64,000 nt of DNA from Candidatus Woesebacteria bacterium RIFCSPHIGHO2_02_FULL_42_20 (GCA_001792535.1 MGGS01000013.1:692-64691); one strand, 5' to 3'; shown: positions 40,677-59,154, numbered from the stretch's first letter. Notes: generated by a model from the letters alone, not told the origin. Numbers and translations: made by a program.

Positions 40677-41276
40677 ATGGGAAGGTACCTGGGACCAAAA
40701 GACAGACTATCGAGGCGCGAAAACTTTGACTTGTTTGGCAAAGGCTCGAAGATTACTCGGCTTAGCGTTCCTCCTGGAATGCACGGTCATAAGGGAACCA
40801 GAAAAGTTTCTGAATACGGAAGTCAGCTGAGAGAGAAACAAAAAGTAAAGAGAATGTATGGCCTAATGGAAAGACAACTCCGTAAATATATTGGGCAGGC
40901 ACTTAAAACTTTAGGGAACACGACAAATGTGTTGTTTGCACTTTTGGAAAGACGGCTTGACAACGTGGTTTTCCGCCTTGGTTTTGCGCCAACTCGTCCA
41001 GCAGCACGCCAGCTGGTGTCTCATAGACATGTGACGGTAAATGGTAAAGTGGTAAACATACCCTCATATCAAGTCGAGAAAGATAACTTGATTAGTCTTA
41101 CAGCTAAGGGTGTGAAGGTACCTTCAACAAAATTGAAGCTGGAAGCTAAAGATCACAACTTACCCGACTGGTTGCAAAAAAAGGCTTTAGTAGGTAAAGT
41201 ATCAAGGTTGCCGATACGTGATGACGTTCAGGAAGAAATTGACGACGCGGGCGTGATTGAGTTTTATTCGAGATAA
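40677..41276 (+). CDS. rpsD: 30S ribosomal protein uS4
   Basis: MGRYLGPKDRLSRRENFDLFGKG... uS4 N-terminus; start moved to ATG 40677 (track ORF 40620 overlaps rpsK). Confidence 0.85.
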   Translation: MGRYLGPKDRLSRRENFDLFGKGSKITRLSVPPGMHGHKGTRKVSEYGSQLREKQKVKRMYGLMERQLRKYIGQALKTLGNTTNVLFALLERRLDNVVFRLGFAPTRPAARQLVSHRHVTVNGKVVNIPSYQVEKDNLISLTAKGVKVPSTKLKLEAKDHNLPDWLQKKALVGKVSRLPIRDDVQEEIDDAGVIEFYSR

Positions 41277-41423
41277 TATGAATATATTAACGAGAGTCAA
41301 GAGCCTTGTGCTCTTATTCGAGGTAATATGAATATATTAACGAGAGTCAAGAGCCTTGTGCTCTTATTCGAGGTAATATGCATATATTAACGGGAAGCAA
41401 GAGCTTATGCTCTTGCCGAGATA
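41274..41423. repeat. three tandem 50-bp direct repeats in the rpsD-rpoA spacer
   Basis: TAATATGAATATATTAACGAGAGTCAAGAGCCTTGTGCTCTTATTCGAGG occurs twice exactly (41274..41323, 41324..41373), then a diverged third copy (41374..41423); each contains the 6-bp inverted repeat AAGAGC-CTTGT-GCTCTT. The first unit begins on the rpsD stop codon. Confidence 0.8.
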
Positions 41424-49367: not shown

Positions 49368-49377
49368 AAAAAATTTT

Positions 49378-49470
49378 GTCGAGATTTACGAAAAAGTTAG
49401 AACCGAATTTCGCAAAGGGTAGCTCGGCCGCCTGCGGCGGCCTCGCTTCCGTTATTTTTTGCGCGCGCGA
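49378..49470 (+). repeat. att-arm repeat copy A (element-end arm; candidate attL)
   Basis: GTCGAGATTTACGAAAAAGTTAGAACCGAATTTC followed by GC-rich hairpins (GGCCGCC-TGC-GGCGGCC, CCTCGC-TTC-GCGAGG) and a T-run; about 80% identical to copies at 55568 and 57184 (inverted). Confidence 0.6.
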
Positions 49471-49493
49471 TTTTATCCTCGCTTCGCGAGGAG

Positions 49494-49955
49494 CTATAGA
49501 GAAATTGAATTCACCAAATCTCTAAAAATAGGAAGATTGGCTTCGTCAATTTGTTGATAAGCTGTTTTCCACTCGGATTTATTAACAACCTCAACATTAT
49601 TTGGCGAGCCTTGAATTCTTACCGTATCATAGTTATCGTTGATAAGAAAAACCTCTCGTGAATATACCCATTCTGTTTGAGCTGTTTCTGATAGAGTTGA
49701 GATATACTCAACTCCTTTGTAATTTCCGATATTCGTTTGTTTAATTCTGATCAACTTACTTCTTAAATCTGATTTTGTTTCCCCATCTTTCATTGTAAGT
49801 AAGGGTAAGTAGCCCTCGAGCCAAGGTTGATTCTTTTTGTACTCGTCTATCGCGGTTCCTTGTGGTTTCTTTGTGTACTGTACACTTATATAATATGAAT
49901 TTTTCTTATCGTACTTTCTGTCTAACCGATCTGTTCCGTATGGATATCTTAACAA
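49494..49955 (-). CDS. hypothetical protein (153 aa) occupying the position of the missing recombinase catalytic domain
   Basis: ORF only; its 5' end abuts the truncated recombinase homology at about 49960. Confidence 0.3.
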   Translation of the reverse strand: MLRYPYGTDRLDRKYDKKNSYYISVQYTKKPQGTAIDEYKKNQPWLEGYLPLLTMKDGETKSDLRSKLIRIKQTNIGNYKGVEYISTLSETAQTEWVYSREVFLINDNYDTVRIQGSPNNVEVVNKSEWKTAYQQIDEANLPIFRDLVNSISL

Positions 49956-49959
49956 TCCG

Positions 49960-50976
49960 AAAACCAGAGGAATAGATGTTGACCCTGAAAAATCAAAGGC
50001 AGTAAAACGAGCTTTTGAAATGTTTGCGGAAGGAAGTCATACTTTTACGGATATTGCCAAATATCTTCATAAATTTGAATTGGGGCGCAAAAACGGGAAA
50101 CCACTTCATATCAACGAAATCCGGCAAATACTCTCGAATAAGTTTTACGTTGGGATAATGTTTTATAACGGTGAGTATCACGACGGAAACCACAAGAGTT
50201 TTGTTTCCAAGGAGCTATTCCAGAAAGTACAAGAGGAAATGCAAAGACGGAGTAAACATTTCAAAAAGTCATATCATTTCCCGTTTTTAGGACTAGCAAG
50301 GTGTAGCGAATGCGGCGCGGCGATCACGGCCGAGCAACACATCAAGTTTTACAAAACCACCAACCGCAAGGTTACTTACGTTTATTATCGTTGCACCAAA
50401 AAACTTGGTCCATGTTCTCAAACGCCAATTACCAATTTTGAAATGGAGGAACAATTAAGAAAAGTTGTTTCTGATGTCGTGCTTCCGCAGTCTTGGGCAG
50501 ACCAGTGGTTGAAATTTTTGGAACGAGACGAGTTAGTCGAAAAACAATCATCAGGAACAACTATCCAAAATCTCAAAACTGAAATTCAAGATCTAGATCG
50601 AAAACAAAACACACTTTTGGACAGTTATCTTGATAGCGTTGTTGATCCTGAAACTTATAAATCTAAGAAAAACGAAATGTTCGAAACAAAACTTAAATTA
50701 CAAGAAGAAATCGTCAAAGTTGAGGAGACGGGTTCGAGTTGGCTCGAACCTATGAGAAATTTCGTAAATTGCGCCTTACAGGCGCAAAAAATCGCGCGCG
50801 CAAAAAATAATTGCGAAGAATTAGCATTCTTCGCAAAACGTGTCGGCTCGAACTTCTTTTTATCCAATCGGCAGCTCTCAGCAGAGCATAAAAAGGGCTT
50901 TGCGGCGCTCCGTGCGGGCGGCGGCGCACGGAGCGCCTCCACCGACTCTATCGATTTTTCTCTCTTGGTCGCATAG
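49960..50976 (+). pseudogene. 5'-truncated large serine recombinase (lacks catalytic resolvase domain)
   Basis: Homology begins at TRGIDVDPEKSKAVKRAFEMFAEGSHTFT and runs to the stop; about 90% aa identity to residues 165-536 of the recombinase at 57432; Ser-nucleophile N-terminal about 165 aa absent; ends at a TTGGTCG core junction (50965). Confidence 0.75.
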
Positions 50977-51141
50977 AAGCGAACAATCTTGAACTAGTTA
51001 CCGAAGCTATTTTATCACATTGGAAACTAATAAACTTTGACGAAAAAAGTATAGTCCTCAATCCATATAATGTGTTCCAAGATAGAAACAGCATGGGTTT
51101 TGTATACAGCTATTGATAATGAAGTCATGGCTTGAACTGAT

Positions 51142-51576
51142 ATGAAGACAGACAAACTAACATTAAAGCAGCGCAAATGGTTAGAAATCTACCTTGAAAC
51201 CGGTAACGCAACTGCAGCAGCGCGTCGCGCGTACAACTGCAACGAACGTAGCGCAAGGCAAATAGGTTACGAGAACATGACAAAACTTGACTTTACAGAC
51301 GTTCTAGAAGCCCATGGCGCTACTGCAGCAATGCTTGTGAAGTTAATTGTAGAAGGTGCTAAAGCAACAAAACTGATTAAAGACAAGGAATTTCCCGATT
51401 GGGAAGTAAGGCACAAATACTTAATAACCATTCTGCGCTTGAAGAAAATGTACCCGCAGCCGGAAGCTATAGGCAATAATGGCGAGGAACCAATCCGTAT
51501 TGTCTTCCAAGACCCGTTTCAAGACCCAACACCAAGCACAAAAATTGACACGAATAGACCTAATTTGATAACATAA
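51142..51576 (+). CDS. phage terminase small subunit (Terminase_2/TerS-like)
   Basis: LTLKQRKWLEIYLETGNATAAARRAYNCNERSARQIGYENMTK matches the TerS HTH signature (LT.KQ..F..EYL..GNAT.AA..AGY). Confidence 0.6.
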   Translation: MKTDKLTLKQRKWLEIYLETGNATAAARRAYNCNERSARQIGYENMTKLDFTDVLEAHGATAAMLVKLIVEGAKATKLIKDKEFPDWEVRHKYLITILRLKKMYPQPEAIGNNGEEPIRIVFQDPFQDPTPSTKIDTNRPNLIT

Positions 51577-51937
51577 TGTTGCTACAATAAGTAGCAAATT
51601 AAGTTAATTAGCTTCATAGAACGCTTTAAGCAGTCCGAAGCAAGTCGCAACGGCTGCTTTTTTATTTGTCCAAAAAGCGTCTATGAAGAAACGTTTCAAA
51701 AGAAAACTAAACGTAGTTCCCACAAAACCGAATTCCGGTTACGCTTCTATTCCCCAAAATCCAACAGAACGGGTAATTCAACTTGTGACGCTTATGGCGT
51801 CGGTGAAAACCGATACAGAAGAAGCAAAGCTAAATGCTACAACCATTTCCGATAACAACGGCAGAAGAATAAACTTATAAAGCCCCTACAATTCCGCATA
51901 AACCCTATAAAAAAATGATATACTTACAGCAAAGATT

Positions 51938-52921
51938 ATGGCTAAAAGCGGTCTATCCATTATTGTTATTGGTGGTTTAAATACAGATATTGTTGCAATT
52001 GGTGCTAAAAAACTATTAAAAGCGGGTGAACACACCTATGCTAGCGAATTAAGGATTGGTGCCGGCGGGAAATCGCGCAATATGGCACAAATGATTGCTA
52101 CTTTAGTTGGTAAGGATAAAGTAGCGATGGTTGGAAAGACTTCAAAAGACCCATATGGTTTTTGGAAAGTGCCATTAGTAGCCTTAAAGCAAGCAAAAGT
52201 AAACACCGAATATGTAAAGATAGCGTCTTTTAAGGAAAGTAATCAGTTCCCCGGAATTGCACTTATACCCGTAGACACGGAGGGAAGAAACCAAATCTAT
52301 GTATTACCGGGAATTACAAATAGTTTTTTGCCCAAAGATATTGATGACGCAAGCGAACTTTTCAAATCGGTTGCAAAAAACAATGGCATATTACTTGTTT
52401 CATTGGAATTACCCTTGCAAACAGCAATTTACGCAATCAAAAAGGCTAATCAAATGGGTATAAAAGTTTTCTTTGACCCCGGTGGAATAGACGAAACAGA
52501 AAATTATAGTGAATTACTAAAACAGAATATCTATTTGATTAAACCAAACGAACATGAAGCTAAAATTCTAACAAGTATAGCAGTTATTGATTTTGATACT
52601 GCGAAGAAAGCAGCGACAAAGTTATTAGGCAAAGGTACAGAAAATGTCCTTATCACAGTTGGGGTAAATGGTGGCTACTTCTTTAACAAAATCGTAGGAA
52701 AACATATCCCTATCCCTAAAATTAAAAGCAGTTCTGTAAAAGACGAAACGGGTTGCGGCGACCAAACCATGGCGGCTTTGTGCACGGCACTTGCCGAAGA
52801 CAAAGATATTCTTGAAGCAATCAATATCGGACTACTTGCGGGAACCTTGCAGTTTGGCAAATCGGGCATTGTCCCTATTACCAAAAAAGAAATTAACAAG
52901 TATTTACATAACAGACTATGA
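51938..52921 (+). CDS. pfkB/ribokinase-family carbohydrate kinase
   Basis: N-terminal IIVIGGLNTDIV (GG dipeptide region) and C-terminal ETGCGDQTMAAL (DTxGAGD-type anion hole) motifs; 327 aa. Confidence 0.7.
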   Translation: MAKSGLSIIVIGGLNTDIVAIGAKKLLKAGEHTYASELRIGAGGKSRNMAQMIATLVGKDKVAMVGKTSKDPYGFWKVPLVALKQAKVNTEYVKIASFKESNQFPGIALIPVDTEGRNQIYVLPGITNSFLPKDIDDASELFKSVAKNNGILLVSLELPLQTAIYAIKKANQMGIKVFFDPGGIDETENYSELLKQNIYLIKPNEHEAKILTSIAVIDFDTAKKAATKLLGKGTENVLITVGVNGGYFFNKIVGKHIPIPKIKSSSVKDETGCGDQTMAALCTALAEDKDILEAINIGLLAGTLQFGKSGIVPITKKEINKYLHNRL

Positions 52922-53310
52922 TTTCCGATGTTTTAGCAGTTTATAATTTAATTAAAGAAACAGTTGACGAAGCGAGTGTATTAAACGCTTTATTTTCGTT
53001 TGATGGTACGCGAAAAGAAGGTGACGAAGTAATTAAAGTGAGGATTAACAAGGCAACAGACAACCAATGGTTTTATGAAATAGAACCGTATGAAGATTAT
53101 ATTTTAATTCCCTTTCCGGTTAACCAAGCAGTATATGTGGATTATGGTCTAGAAAAGGATAGTCAAAACCCTTCGGTAAAATTTTTTAGGTATGTATCAA
53201 GCCCGCTTTCAAGATATAGCCAAGGTGGTGAACCTAATGTTAGGGTAGATTTTTTTGTGTTTGGGTACAGACCTTCGGATTTAATGGCAAGTCGCAAGAA
53301 AAAAGCCTAG
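52918..53310 (+). CDS. hypothetical protein (130 aa)
   Basis: ORF overlapping the pfkB stop by 4 nt; no motif. Confidence 0.3.
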   Translation: MISDVLAVYNLIKETVDEASVLNALFSFDGTRKEGDEVIKVRINKATDNQWFYEIEPYEDYILIPFPVNQAVYVDYGLEKDSQNPSVKFFRYVSSPLSRYSQGGEPNVRVDFFVFGYRPSDLMASRKKKA

Positions 53311-53326
53311 CAAGGAAAAAATAACA

Positions 53327-54034
53327 ATGAACGTCAATGGTAATTTACAGTATAAGCAAGCACAACGGGAACTTTTTGACGAACTTGAAAATAAGTTCAA
53401 AAACGGTGAAAAACCCTCAACCATTGTTGAACCCGTAAAAGATTATGAAAATGATAATAGAATTTGTTTAACAAGCGTAGCTTTTATTCCACCACACCTT
53501 CAAGAAATAATATTGTCCACGGTTGTTGACCCGCTTAAAAGTGCAGATAGCCAACAATACTATTACATTCAAAACTCCTTCCATTTAACCATTCAAAATA
53601 TACGAACGATTAACTTGCCGCCGTTGTTTAGCGATAGCGATATTGAAAAGGCAATAAAAGTATTTGACCAAATAGTGCCAAAACATAAACATTTGTTCTT
53701 TGATATTGAAGGTCTTTTTGAACTTCCAACAAGTCTATCTTTGCGTGCCTATGCTGATAAAGGATTAAAAGATTTAGCCTTGGAATTAAGGCGGGGGTTA
53801 AAAGAAGCCGGGGTTCCCGATAACAAAACGTATGCTTCAAGTGATGTAGTATTTGGCAATACAAGTGTTTGCAGATATACAACAACACCAAATGATTTGT
53901 TTTTTAATGAAGTTAAACGGCTAAAAAATATAAAGATAGGTCGTTTAGAAGTTTCAACAGTTTCCTTAATCACGACAAATTCTGTTTGTCACCCTAGTAA
54001 AACAAAAATAATCAAAGAATTTAACTTGGCTTAA
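53327..54034 (+). CDS. hypothetical protein (235 aa), weak 2H-phosphoesterase-like HxT/S motifs
   Basis: FHLTIQ and CHPSK could be the two H-x-T/S-x motifs of the 2H superfamily; weak. Confidence 0.3.
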   Translation: MNVNGNLQYKQAQRELFDELENKFKNGEKPSTIVEPVKDYENDNRICLTSVAFIPPHLQEIILSTVVDPLKSADSQQYYYIQNSFHLTIQNIRTINLPPLFSDSDIEKAIKVFDQIVPKHKHLFFDIEGLFELPTSLSLRAYADKGLKDLALELRRGLKEAGVPDNKTYASSDVVFGNTSVCRYTTTPNDLFFNEVKRLKNIKIGRLEVSTVSLITTNSVCHPSKTKIIKEFNLA

Positions 54035-54046
54035 AGTGTTTATTTT

Positions 54047-55591
54047 ATGGATAATGACATTGACCTAACAAAGCTAAAATATGTTTTATATGCCCGTAAA
54101 TCCACAGACGACCCCGAACGGCAAGTAAGGTCGGTTGAAGACCAAATAGCCGAATGTGAACATTTGGCAATGCGGTTAGGTATACACCTCGTAAAACCCC
54201 ACATAATTGAAAAAAAGTCCGCTAAAAGACCCGGACAAAGACCATTGTTCAAACAAATGCTAAATGACATCAGGAAAGGCGTCTACGACGGCATAGTGGC
54301 GTGGAACCCGGATAGGTTGGCAAGGAACATGAAGGAAGGTGGGGAAATTATTGATATGGTGGACGAAGACCTAATAAAAGATATGCGCTTTGTTACCCAC
54401 CACTTTTCAAAAGACGCGAACGGTAAAATGTTACTTGGAATGGCATTTGTATTATCAAAGCAGTATTCGGACAAATTATCACAAGACGTAACAAGGGGCT
54501 TGCACCGTAAAGTTGAAGAAGGCAAATCACACATTCCAAAACACGGCTATATTAAAGACGAAGAAGGGTTGTATAGACCCGACGGCAGAAACTTTGAATT
54601 GATTTGTGAAGCGTGGGCAATGCGTAAAGAAGGCACGTCCTTGGAACAAATAGAAGAATATCTTGATAAAGAAGGCTATCAACGAATAATTAAAACGTCC
54701 GGTAAACCCGTAAAACTTACCTTCAAGCGATTAAGCGATTTGTTCAAAGACCCATTCTACTACGGCTTACTTATTCAAGGCGCAAAACGGATTGATTTAC
54801 GTGAAGTATACGAATTCAAACAAGCTGTAACCGAAGCGGACTACAACCAAATTCAACAGCTTTTTTATAACAAAACCAAGCCATATCGTACGCGCCGGTT
54901 AAGTTTCTATCCCCTTAAACTAATGCTTAAGTGCAGTTTTTGCAGTAGTAATATGGTGATTGCGCCTTCAACCGGTTCAACAAAGCGGTATTTGAATGCA
55001 AGGTGTGATAACAAGTTCTGTTCGCGCAAAAAGAAATCAATACGTATGATAAACGTATTTAACTTTATTTACGACTTTTTGGACAAAGGACTTAATTTTA
55101 CAGTAAAGGATTATAACGACTACTACAAGGGAATGACCACGTATTCCGAAGCCAAACAACAAAAGGTGCAAATTGAAATTCACAGCAAGCAAGCAATTTT
55201 GCGCAATGTTGATATTGAAGTGCGGGAACGCGCATTAAAGATATTGGATTTTGAAAAGTCTTCAACGGTGCGGAAGATTAACGAAGACAAAATCGCCGAG
55301 CTTGAAGACCAAAAAGAACAATTGAAGGAACAAATAGCCAAGTTGCAGCAGCAAATAGCAGAACCCGAAAAGGATAGATTAACGTTAGAAGAATTCTTGA
55401 ACTTGTCAAAAAATGCCGCCACGGTGGTCAAATCGGGTGACGCAAGTGTTAAAGACCAAATTTGCCGTTTAATTTTCTTGAACTTTACCGTTGATGAAGC
55501 GAAAGTGGCGTCATATCAACTAAAAGAACCATTTACCACCCTACTAAAACATCATAGTTTGTCATTTGGTCGAGATTTACGAAAAAGTTAG
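54047..55591 (+). CDS. large serine recombinase (resolvase catalytic domain, recombinase domain, zinc ribbon, coiled coil)
   Basis: YARKSTDDPERQVRSVEDQ (catalytic Ser), DRLARN, Cys cluster CSFC...C.NKFC, C-terminal coiled coil; last 7 codons lie inside att-arm repeat B. Confidence 0.85.
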   Translation: MDNDIDLTKLKYVLYARKSTDDPERQVRSVEDQIAECEHLAMRLGIHLVKPHIIEKKSAKRPGQRPLFKQMLNDIRKGVYDGIVAWNPDRLARNMKEGGEIIDMVDEDLIKDMRFVTHHFSKDANGKMLLGMAFVLSKQYSDKLSQDVTRGLHRKVEEGKSHIPKHGYIKDEEGLYRPDGRNFELICEAWAMRKEGTSLEQIEEYLDKEGYQRIIKTSGKPVKLTFKRLSDLFKDPFYYGLLIQGAKRIDLREVYEFKQAVTEADYNQIQQLFYNKTKPYRTRRLSFYPLKLMLKCSFCSSNMVIAPSTGSTKRYLNARCDNKFCSRKKKSIRMINVFNFIYDFLDKGLNFTVKDYNDYYKGMTTYSEAKQQKVQIEIHSKQAILRNVDIEVRERALKILDFEKSSTVRKINEDKIAELEDQKEQLKEQIAKLQQQIAEPEKDRLTLEEFLNLSKNAATVVKSGDASVKDQICRLIFLNFTVDEAKVASYQLKEPFTTLLKHHSLSFGRDLRKS

Positions 55592-55671
55592 AACCGAATT
55601 TCAAAGTTGTTAGCTCGGCCGCTTCGCGGCCTCGCAAGGTGAGCGCGGCGCCCCCACCCGCCGCGCTTCCG
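55568..55671 (+). repeat. att-arm repeat B; left copy of a perfect 104-bp inverted repeat
   Basis: GGTCGAGATTTACGAAAAAGTTAGAACCGAATTTCAAAGTTGTTAGCTCGGCCGCTTCGCGGCCTCGCAAGGTGAGCGCGGCGCCCCCACCCGCCGCGCTTCCG; reverse complement found exactly at 57184..57287; contains two GC hairpins. Confidence 0.85.
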
Positions 55672-55733
55672 TTATTTTATGCGTATTTTATGCGCGCGCG
55701 ATTTTTAGATAGCAATTATTAATGCGAAATATT

Positions 55734-56966
55734 CTAATAAGACTTCAGTGTGCTTTTCAGTAAAATTCCGTTTGCCCAATATTCACCAGTACCCCCAGAG
55801 GGTAAAATGTCATAGGTATAGTGCTGGTTATACAATTTACTTTCTACTTTTATAACTTTGACTCCGGCTATGTAGTCACTATCTTTTATTTGTCCCACCA
55901 AACGCCCATCTCCCAAAGGATGTCCGGAAGAAGCGCTTAGCTCCTTACCATCAGCTAAAAGTATGTGTGCAATTCTAAAGTCAGCAGGAACAAGGGAATG
56001 GCTAACTTGTTGAACAGTTCCAGCAACTGGTTCACCAGTATCATTGGTTGTCCAAACGGGCGTACCAATAACAACGTCTTTAATCAAAACTTCTCCCTGC
56101 GGTGTAGAAATTTTTGCTTGACTATCAAGACAAATTGGTCCGGGTCCGCCGCGATAGCGTTGTATCAACTCGACTGATTCAAATAAATCTAAGGTCTTAA
56201 GCTTGTTCTGAAAATCAGTTTCTTTTCCACTAGGGACGTTCAATTCAGTGGAAAGGGCTTCATACCATGGATTCGTTCTGTTCCCAAAAGATTCCTGTCC
56301 GCTTTCAATATTTACCACCGCAATTTCAACAGTAGAGCTGCCAATCTGTTTTTTAGCCACATCGACTAAATCGGGATAATTCGCATGTAACCATTCATCT
56401 TCTTCAAACCAGCTCAATGGTGTTCTAAATGTTACCCATAAATAAGCTGTGTCTTCTCTAATGCGTTCTTTGTATTTGCCCAACTGTTCGTCAGTATAGG
56501 TATAGTCCACATTGAGTATCTTGGAATCCGTGCTTAGTTTGCGTCCATAGAGCTGGCCGCCGATACGACTAGGTGTGGCAAAAAGAGTGGTTTTAATCTT
56601 CAAAACATCTGAAGGAAGTTGTAAGTCCATAAGAGATAATTGATCACTGGCGATCTTGATATCTGCATTCGGTTTAAACTTTACCCGCAACTTGCCCGTC
56701 ACAATATCTTCTGTTTCATTTTTACCCAAGGTAAGCTTATCTATCTTCTTGTTCAGTGTATAGAAAGTATAAAACCCTCCAAATAATAAAACGGCAAACA
56801 GAATCATCGCTGAAAACATCCATGGATTTATCTTTCTCCTTCTGGAAGATGCTGTGAGATTGCTTGTCTGATTTTGCCCGATTTGCTGCGTATTTTGATC
56901 ACCAATATTTGTTTGATTTTCCATATGTATCTCTATGAAAAAGTATATCATATTTGAAGATTTCAA
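55734..56966 (-). CDS. membrane-anchored protein with C-terminal Hint (Hedgehog/intein-like, bacterial intein-like) domain
   Basis: TM anchor (MFSAMILFAVLLFGGFYTFY), 230-aa unknown domain, then GGPGPI-CLDSQAKISTPQGEVLIKDVVIGTPV...HPL...YTYDILPSGGTGEYWANGILLKS: Hint signature beginning with the nucleophile Cys and ending in the Y.YD....F.ANGIL.HN block. Confidence 0.7.
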   Translation of the reverse strand: MKSSNMIYFFIEIHMENQTNIGDQNTQQIGQNQTSNLTASSRRRKINPWMFSAMILFAVLLFGGFYTFYTLNKKIDKLTLGKNETEDIVTGKLRVKFKPNADIKIASDQLSLMDLQLPSDVLKIKTTLFATPSRIGGQLYGRKLSTDSKILNVDYTYTDEQLGKYKERIREDTAYLWVTFRTPLSWFEEDEWLHANYPDLVDVAKKQIGSSTVEIAVVNIESGQESFGNRTNPWYEALSTELNVPSGKETDFQNKLKTLDLFESVELIQRYRGGPGPICLDSQAKISTPQGEVLIKDVVIGTPVWTTNDTGEPVAGTVQQVSHSLVPADFRIAHILLADGKELSASSGHPLGDGRLVGQIKDSDYIAGVKVIKVESKLYNQHYTYDILPSGGTGEYWANGILLKSTLKSY

Positions 56967-57183
56967 GTATCAAAATGCTCTTGTATTTTTATTGCCTTCT
57001 CTGGTATATTGTTATCGTACTCAACTCATGGCGGATCTCTTTTTTGATGGCCGTCTTGGTCAACTAGGAGAGATCCGAGTTGAGTACAACCAGGGCGGCC
57101 ATTTAAGTTGTATAAAAGTTCTTTAAAATTTTTGCGTTTTTTTTAGTTTTGCTCAGAACAAAACCAATTCGAGCTGACACGTT

Positions 57184-57372
57184 CGGAAGCGCGGCGGGTG
57201 GGGGCGCCGCGCTCACCTTGCGAGGCCGCGAAGCGGCCGAGCTAACAACTTTGAAATTCGGTTCTAACTTTTTCGTAAATCTCGACCAAAAGAGAAAGAG
57301 AGTCCGTCGAGTTGGAGGCGCTCCTTGCGCCGCCGCCCGCACGGAGCGCCGCAAAGCCCTTTTTATATTCTG
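57184..57372 (-). repeat. inverted att-arm repeat C (104 bp identical to B) fused to an inverted 85-bp copy of a recombinase 3' end
   Basis: 57184..57287 is the exact reverse complement of 55568..55671; 57288..57372 reverse complement matches 58838..58925 (3' end of recombinase 57432..) with few mismatches. An inverted attP-like site. Confidence 0.85.
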
Positions 57373-57431
57373 CCGAGAGCTACCGGAAAAAAGAAGGAAA
57401 GAAAACGCAAAAATTTTAGGAAAACAAAAAT

Positions 57432-59042
57432 ATGAACAAATACATAGCTTATTGCCGAAAATCGAGAGACGAAGCAGACAAACAAATTTTGTCCATTGAG
57501 GCGCAAATTGCTGAATTAAAAGAATTTGCCAAACGGGAGCATTTGGAGATTGTCGAGTTTGTCGAGGAAGCCAAAACCGCCAAAATACCAGGAAGGGAGC
57601 AGTTTGCCAAAGTCCTAAAGAAAATCGAACAGGGGCACGCAAACGGAATCGTTGCGTGGCACCCCGATCGTTTGGCTAGAAACTCAATGGATGGCGGTAA
57701 AATTATTTACCTTCTGGATACCGGCAAACTGCTTGATCTGAAATTTCCAACGTCTTGGTTTGAGAATACACCACAAGGAAAGTTTATGCTTTCAATCGCC
57801 TTTGGCCAATCGAAATATTATGTAGACAATCTTTCCGAGAACGTAAAGCGAGGATTGCGCCAGAAACTCCGCAACGGAGTTTGGCCGGCTAAAGCTCCTT
57901 ATGGCTATGTGAACAATCCCAAAACCAGAGGAATTGATGTTGACCTCGAAAGATCAAAAGCCATCAAACGAGCTTTTGAAATGTTTGCGGAAGGAAGCCA
58001 TACATTTACTGATATTGCCAAGTATCTCCATAAATTCGATCTGAAACGCAAAAACGGAAAACCTCTCCATGTCAACGAAATCCGGCAGATACTCTCAAAC
58101 AAATTTTATATTGGAATTATGTTTTACAACGGTGAGTATCACGACGGAAATCATAAATGTTTTATCTCTAAAGAGTTATTCCAAAAAACACAAGGAGAAA
58201 TGAACCGAAGAAGCAAACATTTTAAAAAGTCATACCGTTTTCCGTTTTTGGGACTCGTAAGGTGCAGCGAATGTGGCGCGGCAATCACCGCCGAGCAACA
58301 CACGAAGTTCTACAAAACTACCAACCATAAAGTTACCTACGTTTACTATCGCTGCACCAAAAAACTTGGTCCTTGTTCTCAAATACCAATTACCAGTTTT
58401 GAGATGGAAGAACAAATAAGAAAGGTTGTTTCTGATGTGAGCTTGCCGCAAAGCTGGGCTGATAATTGGTTGAAATTTTTAGAACGGGACGAATTAATCG
58501 AGAAACAATCATCAGAAACAACTATCCAAAATCTCAAAACTGAAATGCAGGAAATAGATCGAAAGCAAAACACACTTTTGGACAGCTATCTCGATAGTGT
58601 CGTTGACCCCGAAACTTATAAAAGCAAGAAAAACGAAATGTTTGAATCAAAACTCAAATTACAAGAAGAAATCGCCAAAGTTGAGGAGACGGGTTCGAAT
58701 TGGCTCGAACCTATGAGAGAATTTGTAAATTGCGCCTTACAGGCGCAAAAAATCGCGCGCGCAAAAAATAATTGCGAAGAATTAGCATTCTTCGCAAAAC
58801 GTGTCGGCTCGAACTTCTTTTTATCTGATCGGCAGCTCGCGGCAGAATATAAAAAAGGCTTCTCGGCGCTCCGTGCGGGCGGCGGCGCAAGGAGCGCCTC
58901 CAACTCGACGGACTCTCTTTCTCTTTTGGTCGGGGTACCAGGAATCGAACCTGGACCGCACGGCCCCCAGCCGCGCATTCTACCACTAAACTATACCCCG
59001 GTAGAGAGTATTTTATACCCAAAATACCTTAGTTTGCACTAA
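57432..59042 (+). CDS. large serine recombinase; 3' end continues antisense through tRNA-Pro
   Basis: YIAYCRKSRDEADKQILSIEAQ (catalytic Ser), recombinase domain, zinc ribbon CSECG...C.KKLGPC, coiled coil. Homology with the other copies ends at about 58925; the last 39 codons (GVPGIEPGPHGPQPRI...) are antisense tRNA, so the native C-terminus is replaced by the integration junction. Confidence 0.85.
   Translation: MNKYIAYCRKSRDEADKQILSIEAQIAELKEFAKREHLEIVEFVEEAKTAKIPGREQFAKVLKKIEQGHANGIVAWHPDRLARNSMDGGKIIYLLDTGKLLDLKFPTSWFENTPQGKFMLSIAFGQSKYYVDNLSENVKRGLRQKLRNGVWPAKAPYGYVNNPKTRGIDVDLERSKAIKRAFEMFAEGSHTFTDIAKYLHKFDLKRKNGKPLHVNEIRQILSNKFYIGIMFYNGEYHDGNHKCFISKELFQKTQGEMNRRSKHFKKSYRFPFLGLVRCSECGAAITAEQHTKFYKTTNHKVTYVYYRCTKKLGPCSQIPITSFEMEEQIRKVVSDVSLPQSWADNWLKFLERDELIEKQSSETTIQNLKTEMQEIDRKQNTLLDSYLDSVVDPETYKSKKNEMFESKLKLQEEIAKVEETGSNWLEPMREFVNCALQAQKIARAKNNCEELAFFAKRVGSNFFLSDRQLAAEYKKGFSALRAGGGARSASNSTDSLSLLVGVPGIEPGPHGPQPRILPLNYTPVESILYPKYLSLH
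58926..58999 (-). tRNA. tRNA-Pro (anticodon GGG), CCA encoded
   Basis: Folded by hand: acceptor CGGGGTA/TACCCCG, D arm with GG, anticodon stem CGCGG/CCGTG, loop CUGGGGG (anticodon GGG), T arm CCAGG-TTCGATT-CCTGG, discriminator A plus CCA; 74 nt. Confidence 0.8.
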
Positions 59043-59154
59043 AAATATTATTTTGGGGAATCATAATCTCTTGCGAGAGTTACAAACTCGAGTAAGAGGA
59101 GTATATCATAAGAAACCCTTGTTTTTACCAAATGCGTGTGATACAAGATAGTCA

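Follow-up and report, generated by a model that had tools for sequence, protein, structure and literature searches.

Results

The Hint gene lies in the cargo module of a serine-integrase island

A 64,000-nucleotide stretch of Candidatus Woesebacteria bacterium RIFCSPHIGHO2_02_FULL_42_20 (GCA_001792535.1, MGGS01000013.1:692-64691; hereafter the window) contains a gene for a Hint-domain protein that is enclosed by long inverted repeats and flanked by two serine recombinase genes, and a preliminary description had proposed that this segment is an invertible DNA switch. Our analysis led to a different reading, to which we assign a probability of about 0.8: the segment is the cargo module of E2, an island of the large serine integrase SR-2 with an internal inverted attP, and the Hint gene is cargo rather than part of a switch.

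The repeat itself is as it had been described. Positions 55568–55671 and 57184–57287 are exact reverse complements over 104/104 nucleotides (chance expectation approximately 1e-53), and the repeat can be extended outward to 114 nt with two mismatches (55558–55671 and 57184–57297). The arms have a GC content of 61%, that of the window being 41%. The 1512 bp between the arms contain one long open reading frame (ORF) on the minus strand (55734–56966, 410 aa from a TTG codon), and no further ORF was found in the segment from 55672 to 57183, in agreement with the single minus-strand gene of the preliminary description. This ORF is called publicly as a 396-aa protein starting from the ATG at 56924, and an identical protein occurs in more than 23 contigs from several studies. 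Full-length serine recombinase genes are indeed present on both sides, namely, SR-1 (54047–55591) and SR-2 (57432–59042), but SR-1 belongs to a separate neighboring island, EA, and not to the island that holds the Hint gene. A second inverted pair (57283–57385 and 58830–58932; 103 nt, 95% identity) brackets SR-2 and abuts the first pair, and more copies of both repeat types are found at 49373–49431 and 50869–50941. We hereafter designate the reported repeat type as Y and the last ~100 nt of the SR-2 gene as X. Apart from the tRNA described below, Rfam detected nothing in the window, including the arms, and a promoter and terminator scan of 55400–59100 yielded nothing above the shuffled expectation.

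The positions of X and Y define E2 as a 3.36-kb island (55572–58931), the last of three stacked islands. At its left end lies a Y arm (55572–55671, plus strand; 55558–55671 together with the shared core), which repeat alignment identifies as the P'-type arm of the E2 attL, with a crossover at approximately 55571|55572. Just inside this arm is a motif, m (AAAAATCGCGCGCGCAtAAAATA; 55684–55706, minus strand), followed by the Hint gene (55734–56924, with the ORF extending to 56966, minus strand) and, just inside the right Y arm, by a second motif, n (AACGTGTCAGCTCGAA; 57168–57183, minus strand). Both motifs also occur within the SR-2 coding sequence, at 58748–58770 and 58798–58813, respectively. 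The right Y arm (57184–57283, minus strand) and an adjoining X arm (57284–57396, minus strand), which is an inverted copy of the last ~103–113 nt of SR-2, form the two halves of an internal inverted attP-like site, J2, and this X arm ends 35 nt before the SR-2 start codon. The SR-2 gene follows (57432–58931, plus strand), and its 3' end is the terminal X arm (58830–58931, plus strand), the P-type arm of attR. The integration target is a tRNA-Pro(GGG) gene (58927–59000, minus strand), which was identified by ARAGORN and by Rfam (tRNA, 61.2 bits) and constitutes the right half of attB; its last 5 nt (discriminator and CCA, 58927–58931) are supplied by the terminal X arm. In the integrated state, the SR-2 ORF reads into this tRNA up to 59042.

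Five junctions in the window share the core TTKGTCG, and the arm boundaries coincide at them to the nucleotide. They include flank.Y' (junction a, 49380/49381; a prime marks the arms of the first island of the array), A.Y (junction c, 55571/55572; A being the right end of EA), the inverted Y.X junction, which is the reverse complement of X.Y (junction d, 57283/57284), and X.tRNA (junction e, 58931/58932). The reported repeat is thus the Y arm of the E2 attL paired with the Y arm of an internal, complete and inverted X.Y site, and this internal site resembles the attP expected for the excised element.

Two further sequence features were observed around the arms. A perfect 11-bp hairpin (TTGCGAAGAAT TAGC ATTCTTCGCAA) is located at 58772–58797, between the m and n motifs within the SR-2 coding sequence; DNA-level constraint seems to act on the final ~60 codons of the integrase. 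In addition, a motif, AAAACGCAAAAATTTTA, is shared by 57124–57144 and 57398–57418, that is, on both sides of the internal site, directed outward toward the cargo and integrase genes. It recurs in other loci of the family described below (e.g., L020 and L080) and may be a common promoter or leader element.

Y and the target tRNA are related as P-type and B-type half-sites

Comparison of Y with the tRNA side of attR in 46 nonidentical loci gave an identity of 0.40 at an outward offset of 4 bp, versus a background of approximately 0.25 in every other register; the corresponding peak in a 26-locus set was 0.38. The first 25 nt of Y imitate the tRNA T-arm displaced by 4 bp, with a TTCGAAC-like motif whose distance from the crossover is 4 bp greater in Y than that of the T-arm sequence in the tRNA. 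In the left Y arm of the window, this motif is TTAGAAC, at the same displacement. For large serine integrases, the motif bound by the outer DNA-binding domain (DBD2) lies 4–5 bp nearer the center on attB than on attP (bioRxiv 10.1101/2025.01.03.631226). The observed offset matches this published shift, so that on this side Y behaves like a half-site of the P type and the tRNA like one of the B type. No symmetry or homology was detectable between the X and Y arms.

These relationships suggest a model for the life cycle of E2. The attP of SR-2 would be composed of the X arm (the last ~100 nt of its own gene) and the Y arm (~100 nt, rich in GC hairpins), and the products of recombination between X.Y and the tRNA 3' end would be the attL at 55572 (flank.Y) and the attR at 58931 (X.tRNA), with the discriminator and CCA of the tRNA being rebuilt by the X arm upon integration. 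The second complete X.Y copy, in inverted orientation (57184–57396), lies between the divergent cargo and integrase genes. The excised circle would then hold two inverted attP sites, of which the tail-to-tail copy would normally be used for integration, and the internal copy would still be competent with tRNA-type attB sites, giving rise to occasional rearrangements.

SR-1 and SR-2 are integrases whose tails depend on the integration state

SR-2 matches the Pfam families Resolvase (PF00239, 2.6e-22), Recombinase (PF07508, 4.5e-15), and Zn_ribbon_recom (PF13408, 2e-06). For SR-1, only PF00239 passes, but it aligns over its full length with SR-2, with 27% identity. Both are integrase-type proteins of 500–514 aa, in contrast to an invertase of ~190 aa with a C-terminal helix-turn-helix (HTH). 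The ORFs of both cross attachment junctions, so that the tail of each protein depends on the integration state. SR-2 has 536 aa when it reads into the tRNA and is predicted to end in ...SLSLLVEIYEKVRTEFQSC (513 aa) when it reads across the X.Y junction, and SR-1 terminates at a stop codon within the neighboring island's Y arm. An exact look-up of the predicted circular or tandem X.Y tail of SR-2 retrieved no such protein, nor did a look-up of SR-1 tails next to a tRNA or to its own left end, and no relative of SR-2 was found in IMG/VR.

Relatives of SR-1 with other C-terminal tails are indicative of other right-hand junctions. Three of them (P0052, P0053, and P0056; 554 aa, on contigs of 4.1–10.2 kb) have tails that read into sequence resembling Z, the left end of the SR-1 island, as would be expected for a circular or tandem SR-1 island. 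In one strain-level assembly (L002, 12615–13613, corresponding to approximately 54367 of the window), SR-1 is split by an insertion encoding a 332-aa HTH_38 (IS30-type) protein, and the contigs L006 and L007 end at the same point.

The three-site layout is conserved in the SR-2 family

A scan of one genome per GTDB species yielded 480 stretches with SR-2 relatives, and the loci analyzed here are the best 80 of these 480. All 80 are from Microgenomates-type genomes of the candidate phyla radiation (CPR) or from bins labeled otherwise. Many CPR-type integrase loci were found in bins titled "uncultured Gammaproteobacteria" or "Pseudomonadales", which are probably mislabeled or contaminated. Integrases with 88–91% identity occur in different candidate phyla, which, together with the other junctions of the tail variants, is indirect evidence of mobility. 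At 64 of the 80 loci, a convergent tRNA gene touches the 3' end of the integrase gene with its own 3' end, and contig ends truncate most of the remaining 16. The target tRNAs include those for Pro, Gln, Glu, Gly, Lys, Trp, Ser, and others.

Three-way alignments of the window and of approximately 30 loci with alignable junctions showed attL and attR to be composites of attP and attB sequence with only a short core in common. In these loci, attL is composed of flank, core, and Y, the internal site of X, core, and Y, and attR of X, core, and tRNA; the shared core has 4–7 nt and is located at the tRNA discriminator and CCA. An X-type inverted pair with its inner copy upstream of the start codon was present in 60 of 62 evaluable loci, with a median length of 106 nt and a median identity of 97.5% (100% in 13 loci), and the distance from the internal X arm to the start codon had a median of 82 nt and reached up to 625 nt. 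A Y-type pair was present in 38 loci (median length, 97 nt; median identity, 98.4%), where it encloses 0.9–5.5 kb of unrelated cargo, including genes for a peptide deformylase, an EamA transporter, a family-3 glycosyltransferase, an RmlD-type epimerase, a GNAT acetyltransferase, and a beta-propeller protein. The smallest islands have only ~2.7 kb (0.93 kb of cargo, the arms, and the integrase gene), and some carry a single cargo gene. The m motif (AAAATCGCGCGCGC...) is found inside the left Y arm in most family members, and the n motif (AAACTGTCGGCTCGAAC) inside the internal Y arm; each also occurs in the 3' coding region of the integrase gene. Among the 39 loci scored for orientation, the window included, 27 have the n motif beside the internal Y arm. 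The arms are assemblies of GC-rich hairpin modules, whose stems differ between loci yet stay complementary.

Mosaic arms were seen at two loci. At L064, the left and internal Y arms are derived from different lineages, and at L079, the internal X arm corresponds to the integrase 3' end of another subgroup rather than to that of its own integrase gene.

The three-site layout is a conserved design of the element family and not an accident. Its retention in 60 of 62 relatives makes a one-off history for the internal site unnecessary. We also attempted to derive this site from tandem copies by simple inversions, head-to-head dimers, or a single homologous crossover; none of these gives the observed order. 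The preliminary description had offered, as an alternative to a switch, that the repeat is a scar of recombination between attachment sites; it was right in that the arms are attachment-site arms, but they belong to a conserved architecture rather than to a scar. An origin of the layout in a one-off rearrangement or in misassembly of the contig has a negligible probability. It is true that repeats of ~100 nt are near the limit of short-read assemblers and that one related contig (L005) has an N gap and two others (L009 and L010) end in an arm. However, both arms are spanned by five independent assemblies at 99.8–100% identity, and the same architecture recurs in the relatives from many studies and phyla-level lineages, which refutes this explanation. 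Our literature searches found no description of an inverted internal-attP architecture.

The segment is found essentially in one orientation

If SR-2 or SR-1 flipped the 1.5-kb segment between the Y arms, production of the Hint protein could be turned on and off in the manner of the Hin, Gin, and Cin systems. The layout lends itself to this interpretation: near-perfect inverted repeats adjoin a serine recombinase gene, and their arms have the crossover at the outer edge. The C segment of phage P1 has the same layout, with the crossover at the outer edge of long repeats. Several contigs also break inside the arms.

The flipped state would be recognizable by the junction pattern CATCATAGTTTGTCATTTGGTC-N100-AACGTGTCAGCTCGAATTGG and the reference state by ...-N100-TTATTTTATGCG. 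All 10 strain-level assemblies that contain the left junction were in the reference state (10/10), and none was flipped. Across the family, scoring by the inner-flank motifs m and n gave 32 loci in canonical orientation and one flipped locus, with six left unassigned. The flipped locus, L068, is cleanly inverted when compared with its relatives L050, L026, and L025. Homologous cargo had the same orientation in 38 of 41 pairs, and where the cargo has a single long ORF next to the left arm, this ORF is always on the minus strand, with its stop codon 42–69 nt from that arm.

The Hint gene also has homologues (82% identity) at L011 and L012, where it has a Y arm on one side and the final 184 nt of an integrase gene on the other and adjoins tRNA-Pro(TGG) or the left end of EA, with neither an inverted repeat nor a recombinase. 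There it points the opposite way relative to the X arm, an arrangement that would be best derived from a flipped module followed by a deletion between the then-direct m motifs, and both this and L068 speak for occasional inversion. On the other hand, the 260-nt upstream region of the Hint gene is conserved (85% identical to that of L011) and lies entirely inside the segment, so that flipping would not uncouple the gene from its promoter. Modules of up to 5.5 kb with housekeeping-like genes have the same arms, and SR-2 is a 500-aa integrase with attP- and attB-type sites, a class for which attL × attP is not a permitted pair (bioRxiv 10.1101/2025.01.03.631226). Since attP recombines with neither attL nor attR, the cargo module would normally be locked and would flip only rarely. 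Flips have thus happened but are rare, and the segment is not a working phase-variation switch; with one orientation within the population and a ratio of 32:1 between species, the switch that had been proposed is not borne out, and we regard it as improbable.

Rearranged loci suggest that the internal attP is active

The preferred reading, an island whose cargo module is bounded by attL and an internal inverted attP, raises the question of what the internal copy does. Three loci in which an X arm is fused to a tRNA 3' end suggest that it is active. In a Shapirobacteria bin (L090), two inverted tRNA-Glu genes flank the integrase gene, each with its 3' end fused to an X arm, in the order tRNA-Glu(ttc), inverted X, integrase, X, tRNA-Glu(ctc). 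This is the product expected if the internal attP had recombined with a neighboring tRNA-Glu gene and the cargo half had been deleted. L056 has a tRNA-Glu gene 171 nt upstream of the integrase gene in the same manner. In L093, from a Rifle sample of the same population as the window, tRNA-Pro(GGG) is fused to an arm that matches the internal copy of the window at 131/131 positions, followed by SR-2; the X arm at the 3' end of SR-2 is a fine mosaic and continues into EA, SR-1, and the Hint gene. The mosaic arm argues for a real allele.

A different partner was seen in L008, where a 6S-RNA-like gene (L008 233–388, with a terminator hairpin; Rfam RF00013, 41.7 bits versus a cut-off of 46.4, E 5e-7) is joined through its terminator to the internal Y arm and is possibly a non-tRNA secondary target of the integrase. 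This junction was first read as a chimera from two single-nucleotide polymorphisms, a reading that we rejected because L007 has the same polymorphisms in a normal internal site. The junction may accordingly be genuine, and it remains ambiguous.

Our best guess for the role of the internal attP is that of a spare attP and an integrase-binding site between two promoter regions; it could serve as a spare integration site, as an integrase-binding operator between divergent genes, or as a pairing partner.

Several observations weigh against the account given so far. On the X side, no P-type/B-type motif relationship with the chromosomal flank was found. L093 and L008 switch partner inside repeats and could be assembly chimeras, and in L093 a 68-nt identical stretch at one partner switch leaves room for this. 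Neither an excised circle nor an empty site was found for E2 among the relative loci, in IMG/VR, or by exact tail look-ups, none of the 80 loci has a direct X.Y junction after the integrase gene, and no recombination directionality factor is evident in the two-gene island. Finally, an integrase site needs approximately 50 bp. The ~100 nt of each arm that are near-identical within a locus and differ between loci exceed this need and are left unexplained by the account; gene conversion, accessory binding sites, single-strand pairing, or regeneration of one copy from the other are candidate causes.

The arm identity also speaks for another explanation, in which the island in single-stranded form folds by pairing of X with inverted X and of Y with inverted Y into one duplex attP of ~200 bp with two loops or, in an alternative form, one attP copy is resynthesized from the other at each transfer; both forms would keep the arms identical. 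Besides the median identities of 97.5–98.4% and the 13 loci at 100%, in arms that differ strongly between loci, the GC-rich hairpin modules with stems that covary between loci are in line with folding, and so is the normal occurrence of one isomer, which would follow from a specific strand serving as the intermediate. Other recombination systems, such as CTX phage and integron attC sites, make use of folded single-stranded DNA. Serine recombinases, however, cut both strands of a duplex, and recombination with a dumbbell would break the chromosome and cap it with a hairpin, so that additional steps would be required. The island encodes no rolling-circle, relaxase, or phage functions, the arms at L064 and L079 are mosaics of different lineages, and gene conversion between 100-nt repeats explains the identity more simply. 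We consider the two forms, even taken together, to be unlikely.

The cargo unit between the inverted Y arms could alternatively be a cassette that is mobile by itself and is swapped by double recombination, as in integrons or in recombinase-mediated cassette exchange. Such swapping would account for unrelated cargo between conserved arms and conserved m and n motifs, for the Y arms of different lineages at L064, and for the same Hint gene in three element contexts (the window, L011, and L012). Yet the loci contained no free cassette, no junction of inverted Y with Y, and no cassette array, and ordinary homologous recombination between related islands explains the mosaics. The sites are moreover inverted and the core is asymmetric in most loci, so that a serine recombinase would invert such a cassette rather than excise it. 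We judge a separately mobile cassette to be very unlikely.

The Hint protein is predicted to be a membrane-anchored protein of the Hedgehog/BIL type

The cargo protein of E2 (396 aa) has a Q/N-rich N-terminus, followed by a predicted transmembrane helix (residues 34–59; 56748–56825), a rare passenger domain with a double ferredoxin-like fold (residues 73–256; 56157–56708), and a Hint_2/bacterial intein-like (BIL)-type autoprocessing domain (residues 265–392; 55749–56132). The homologues start with signal-peptide or lipoprotein-like sequences, from which a surface location is inferred, and the protein is probably a membrane-anchored surface protein. Relatives of the passenger domain are few (10 among 1.84 billion representatives), and in them the domain occurs alone, with Hint_2, or with another C-terminal domain.

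The profile search recommended in the preliminary description did not carry the Hint assignment by itself. Against Hint_2 (PF13403), the whole protein scored 15.5 bits and its C-terminal 150 aa 17.6 bits, below the Pfam gathering cut-off of 28.4, which counts against the assignment. By contrast, the C-terminal third is 41–52% identical to 15 proteins (P0003–P0017) that are annotated with PF13403, and two AlphaFold models gave a predicted local distance difference test score (pLDDT) of >90 for this part, whereby the HINT fold is confirmed at the level of the predicted structure. In an alignment of 17 sequences, Cys265 (position 1) and Ser332-x-x-His335 of block B are nearly invariant, and the domain has a conserved end, ...YWANGILLKSTL. 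The C-terminal Hint domain with a nucleophilic Cys, and with nothing functional after it, is therefore as described. The conservation anticipated for the terminal Asn was not found: the His-Asn end of inteins is replaced by Lys390-Ser391, and only five residues follow (...NGILLKS-TLKSY). Nor is the position of the domain at the extreme C-terminus unusual, as had been thought, because it is the rule in all 15 Hint_2 homologues, which end in ...TYDILPSGGTGxYWANGILLKSTL, and is the arrangement of Hedgehog and BIL proteins.

With Lys-Ser in place of the terminal Asn, intein-type splicing and C-terminal cleavage are excluded. We considered and rejected an intein, since the C-terminal His-Asn and a +1 extein are lacking, as well as a C-terminal toxin released by the Hint domain, since the protein ends five residues after this domain and the segment contains no other ORF. 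In the Hedgehog/BIL class, cleavage or transfer takes place only at the N-terminal junction (PMC7765530), and the sequence fits this type. By analogy, an N-S acyl shift at Ile264-Cys265 is the most likely reaction of the domain; it would either cleave off the Hint domain or transfer the new C-terminus of the passenger to a nucleophile.

E2 is the last island of an array at tRNA-Pro(GGG)

In the simplest reading of the sequence, 49381–58931 is occupied by three integrase islands that are stacked against the tRNA-Pro(GGG) 3' end. The first, E1 (49381–50970, plus strand), would be a decayed island of the SR-2 family, as judged from the repeat copies, Pfam matches, and junction alignment. It consists of a Y' arm (49381–~49455), an m' motif (49460–49474), a 153-aa ORF on the minus strand (49494–49955), a 5'-truncated integrase gene, SR-2' (from ~49935; ORF 50020–50976), that retains the Pfam Recombinase and Zn_ribbon domains without the catalytic domain, and an X' arm that ends at 50970. 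The second, EA (50971–55571, plus strand), lies between the X' arm and the Y arm of E2, with the junctions X'.Z and A.Y, and would be the island of the other large serine integrase, SR-1. According to Pfam, its cargo includes a Terminase_2-like HTH protein (51142–51576) and a PfkB kinase (51938–52921), and it carries two more genes without an assigned family. The Terminase_2-like (terS/HTH) gene is the first gene of EA and recalls phage-satellite-like islands. Elsewhere in the window, three head-to-tail copies of a 50-nt unit (100%, 98%, and 74%) were found at 41264–41413, between rpsD-like and rpoA-like genes.

Discussion

The architecture of E2 can be compared with several known systems. The integrases of phiC31, Bxb1, SPbeta (SprA), TP901-1, and A118/LI have the same combination of Resolvase, Recombinase, and zinc-ribbon domains in ~500 aa. 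Other features in common with these phage and island integrases are a short core, the outward displacement by 4 bp of the attB motif in the attP half-site, and integration that leaves the target gene intact. SR-2 differs from the phiC31 type in that its attP overlaps the 3' end of the integrase gene, whose tail changes with the integration state, and in that the conserved arms are ~100 nt rather than ~25 nt long. Moreover, SR-2 islands keep a full inverted attP inside the integrated element, are very small, have no recognizable directionality factor, and reside in CPR hosts. The invertases and their sites (Hin/hix, Gin/gix, Cin/cix with the P1 C segment, and PinQ) likewise have an inverted-repeat segment beside a serine recombinase gene; however, E2 has a large integrase, a fixed orientation (32:1), and whole genes with their upstream regions, and its sites are attL and attP.

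Among mobile islands, the tRNA-targeting tycheposons of Prochlorococcus are the nearest functional analogues that we found (bioRxiv 10.1101/2020.12.28.424599). They are likewise small cargo islands that are stacked at tRNA genes, with a minority using large serine recombinases, but most have tyrosine recombinases and many have replication genes, and no internal inverted attP is described in the searched text. In geometry, the predicted E2 circle would be the same as the yeast 2-micron plasmid (FLP/FRT), with two inverted sites and two unique halves; the latter differs in that it has a tyrosine recombinase, replicates itself, and amplifies its copy number by flipping, whereas no flipping is evident in E2. 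As for the cargo, the Hint protein resembles the Hedgehog Hog domain, BIL domains, and Hint_2 in having Cys1, an S/T-x-x-H block B, and a C-terminal location behind a passenger, but it lacks the sterol-recognition region of Hog and differs from Hog and BIL domains in its Lys-Ser in place of His-Asn, its rare passenger, and its sub-cut-off Pfam score.

The Hint gene is ordinary cargo and the repeat is not a switch; what deserves further attention is the three-site architecture, in which an inverted attP lies inside the island and appears to be active. A tentative proposal, to which we attach a rather low probability, is that the SR-2 family is an undescribed class of CPR serine-integrase islands whose life cycle depends on the built-in second attP. 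If this were true, the two inverted copies might pair in a single-stranded intermediate, or they might permit integration or retargeting without a directionality factor, and the internal site would in addition cause chromosomal rearrangements between tRNA genes in minimal genomes. For serine-integrase biology, the mechanistic question is why a live attP is kept in the chromosome. Because attP and attB can be read from each locus, the family offers dozens of natural pairs of integrase and site, which are possible tools. With approximately 480 members, it represents very small islands in Microgenomates, whose genomes are tiny and have few recognized mobile elements. Islands of the SR-2 type would carry single accessory genes from one lineage to another and accumulate side by side at tRNA genes, and the family may thus give a handle on gene flow and genome rearrangement in CPR bacteria.

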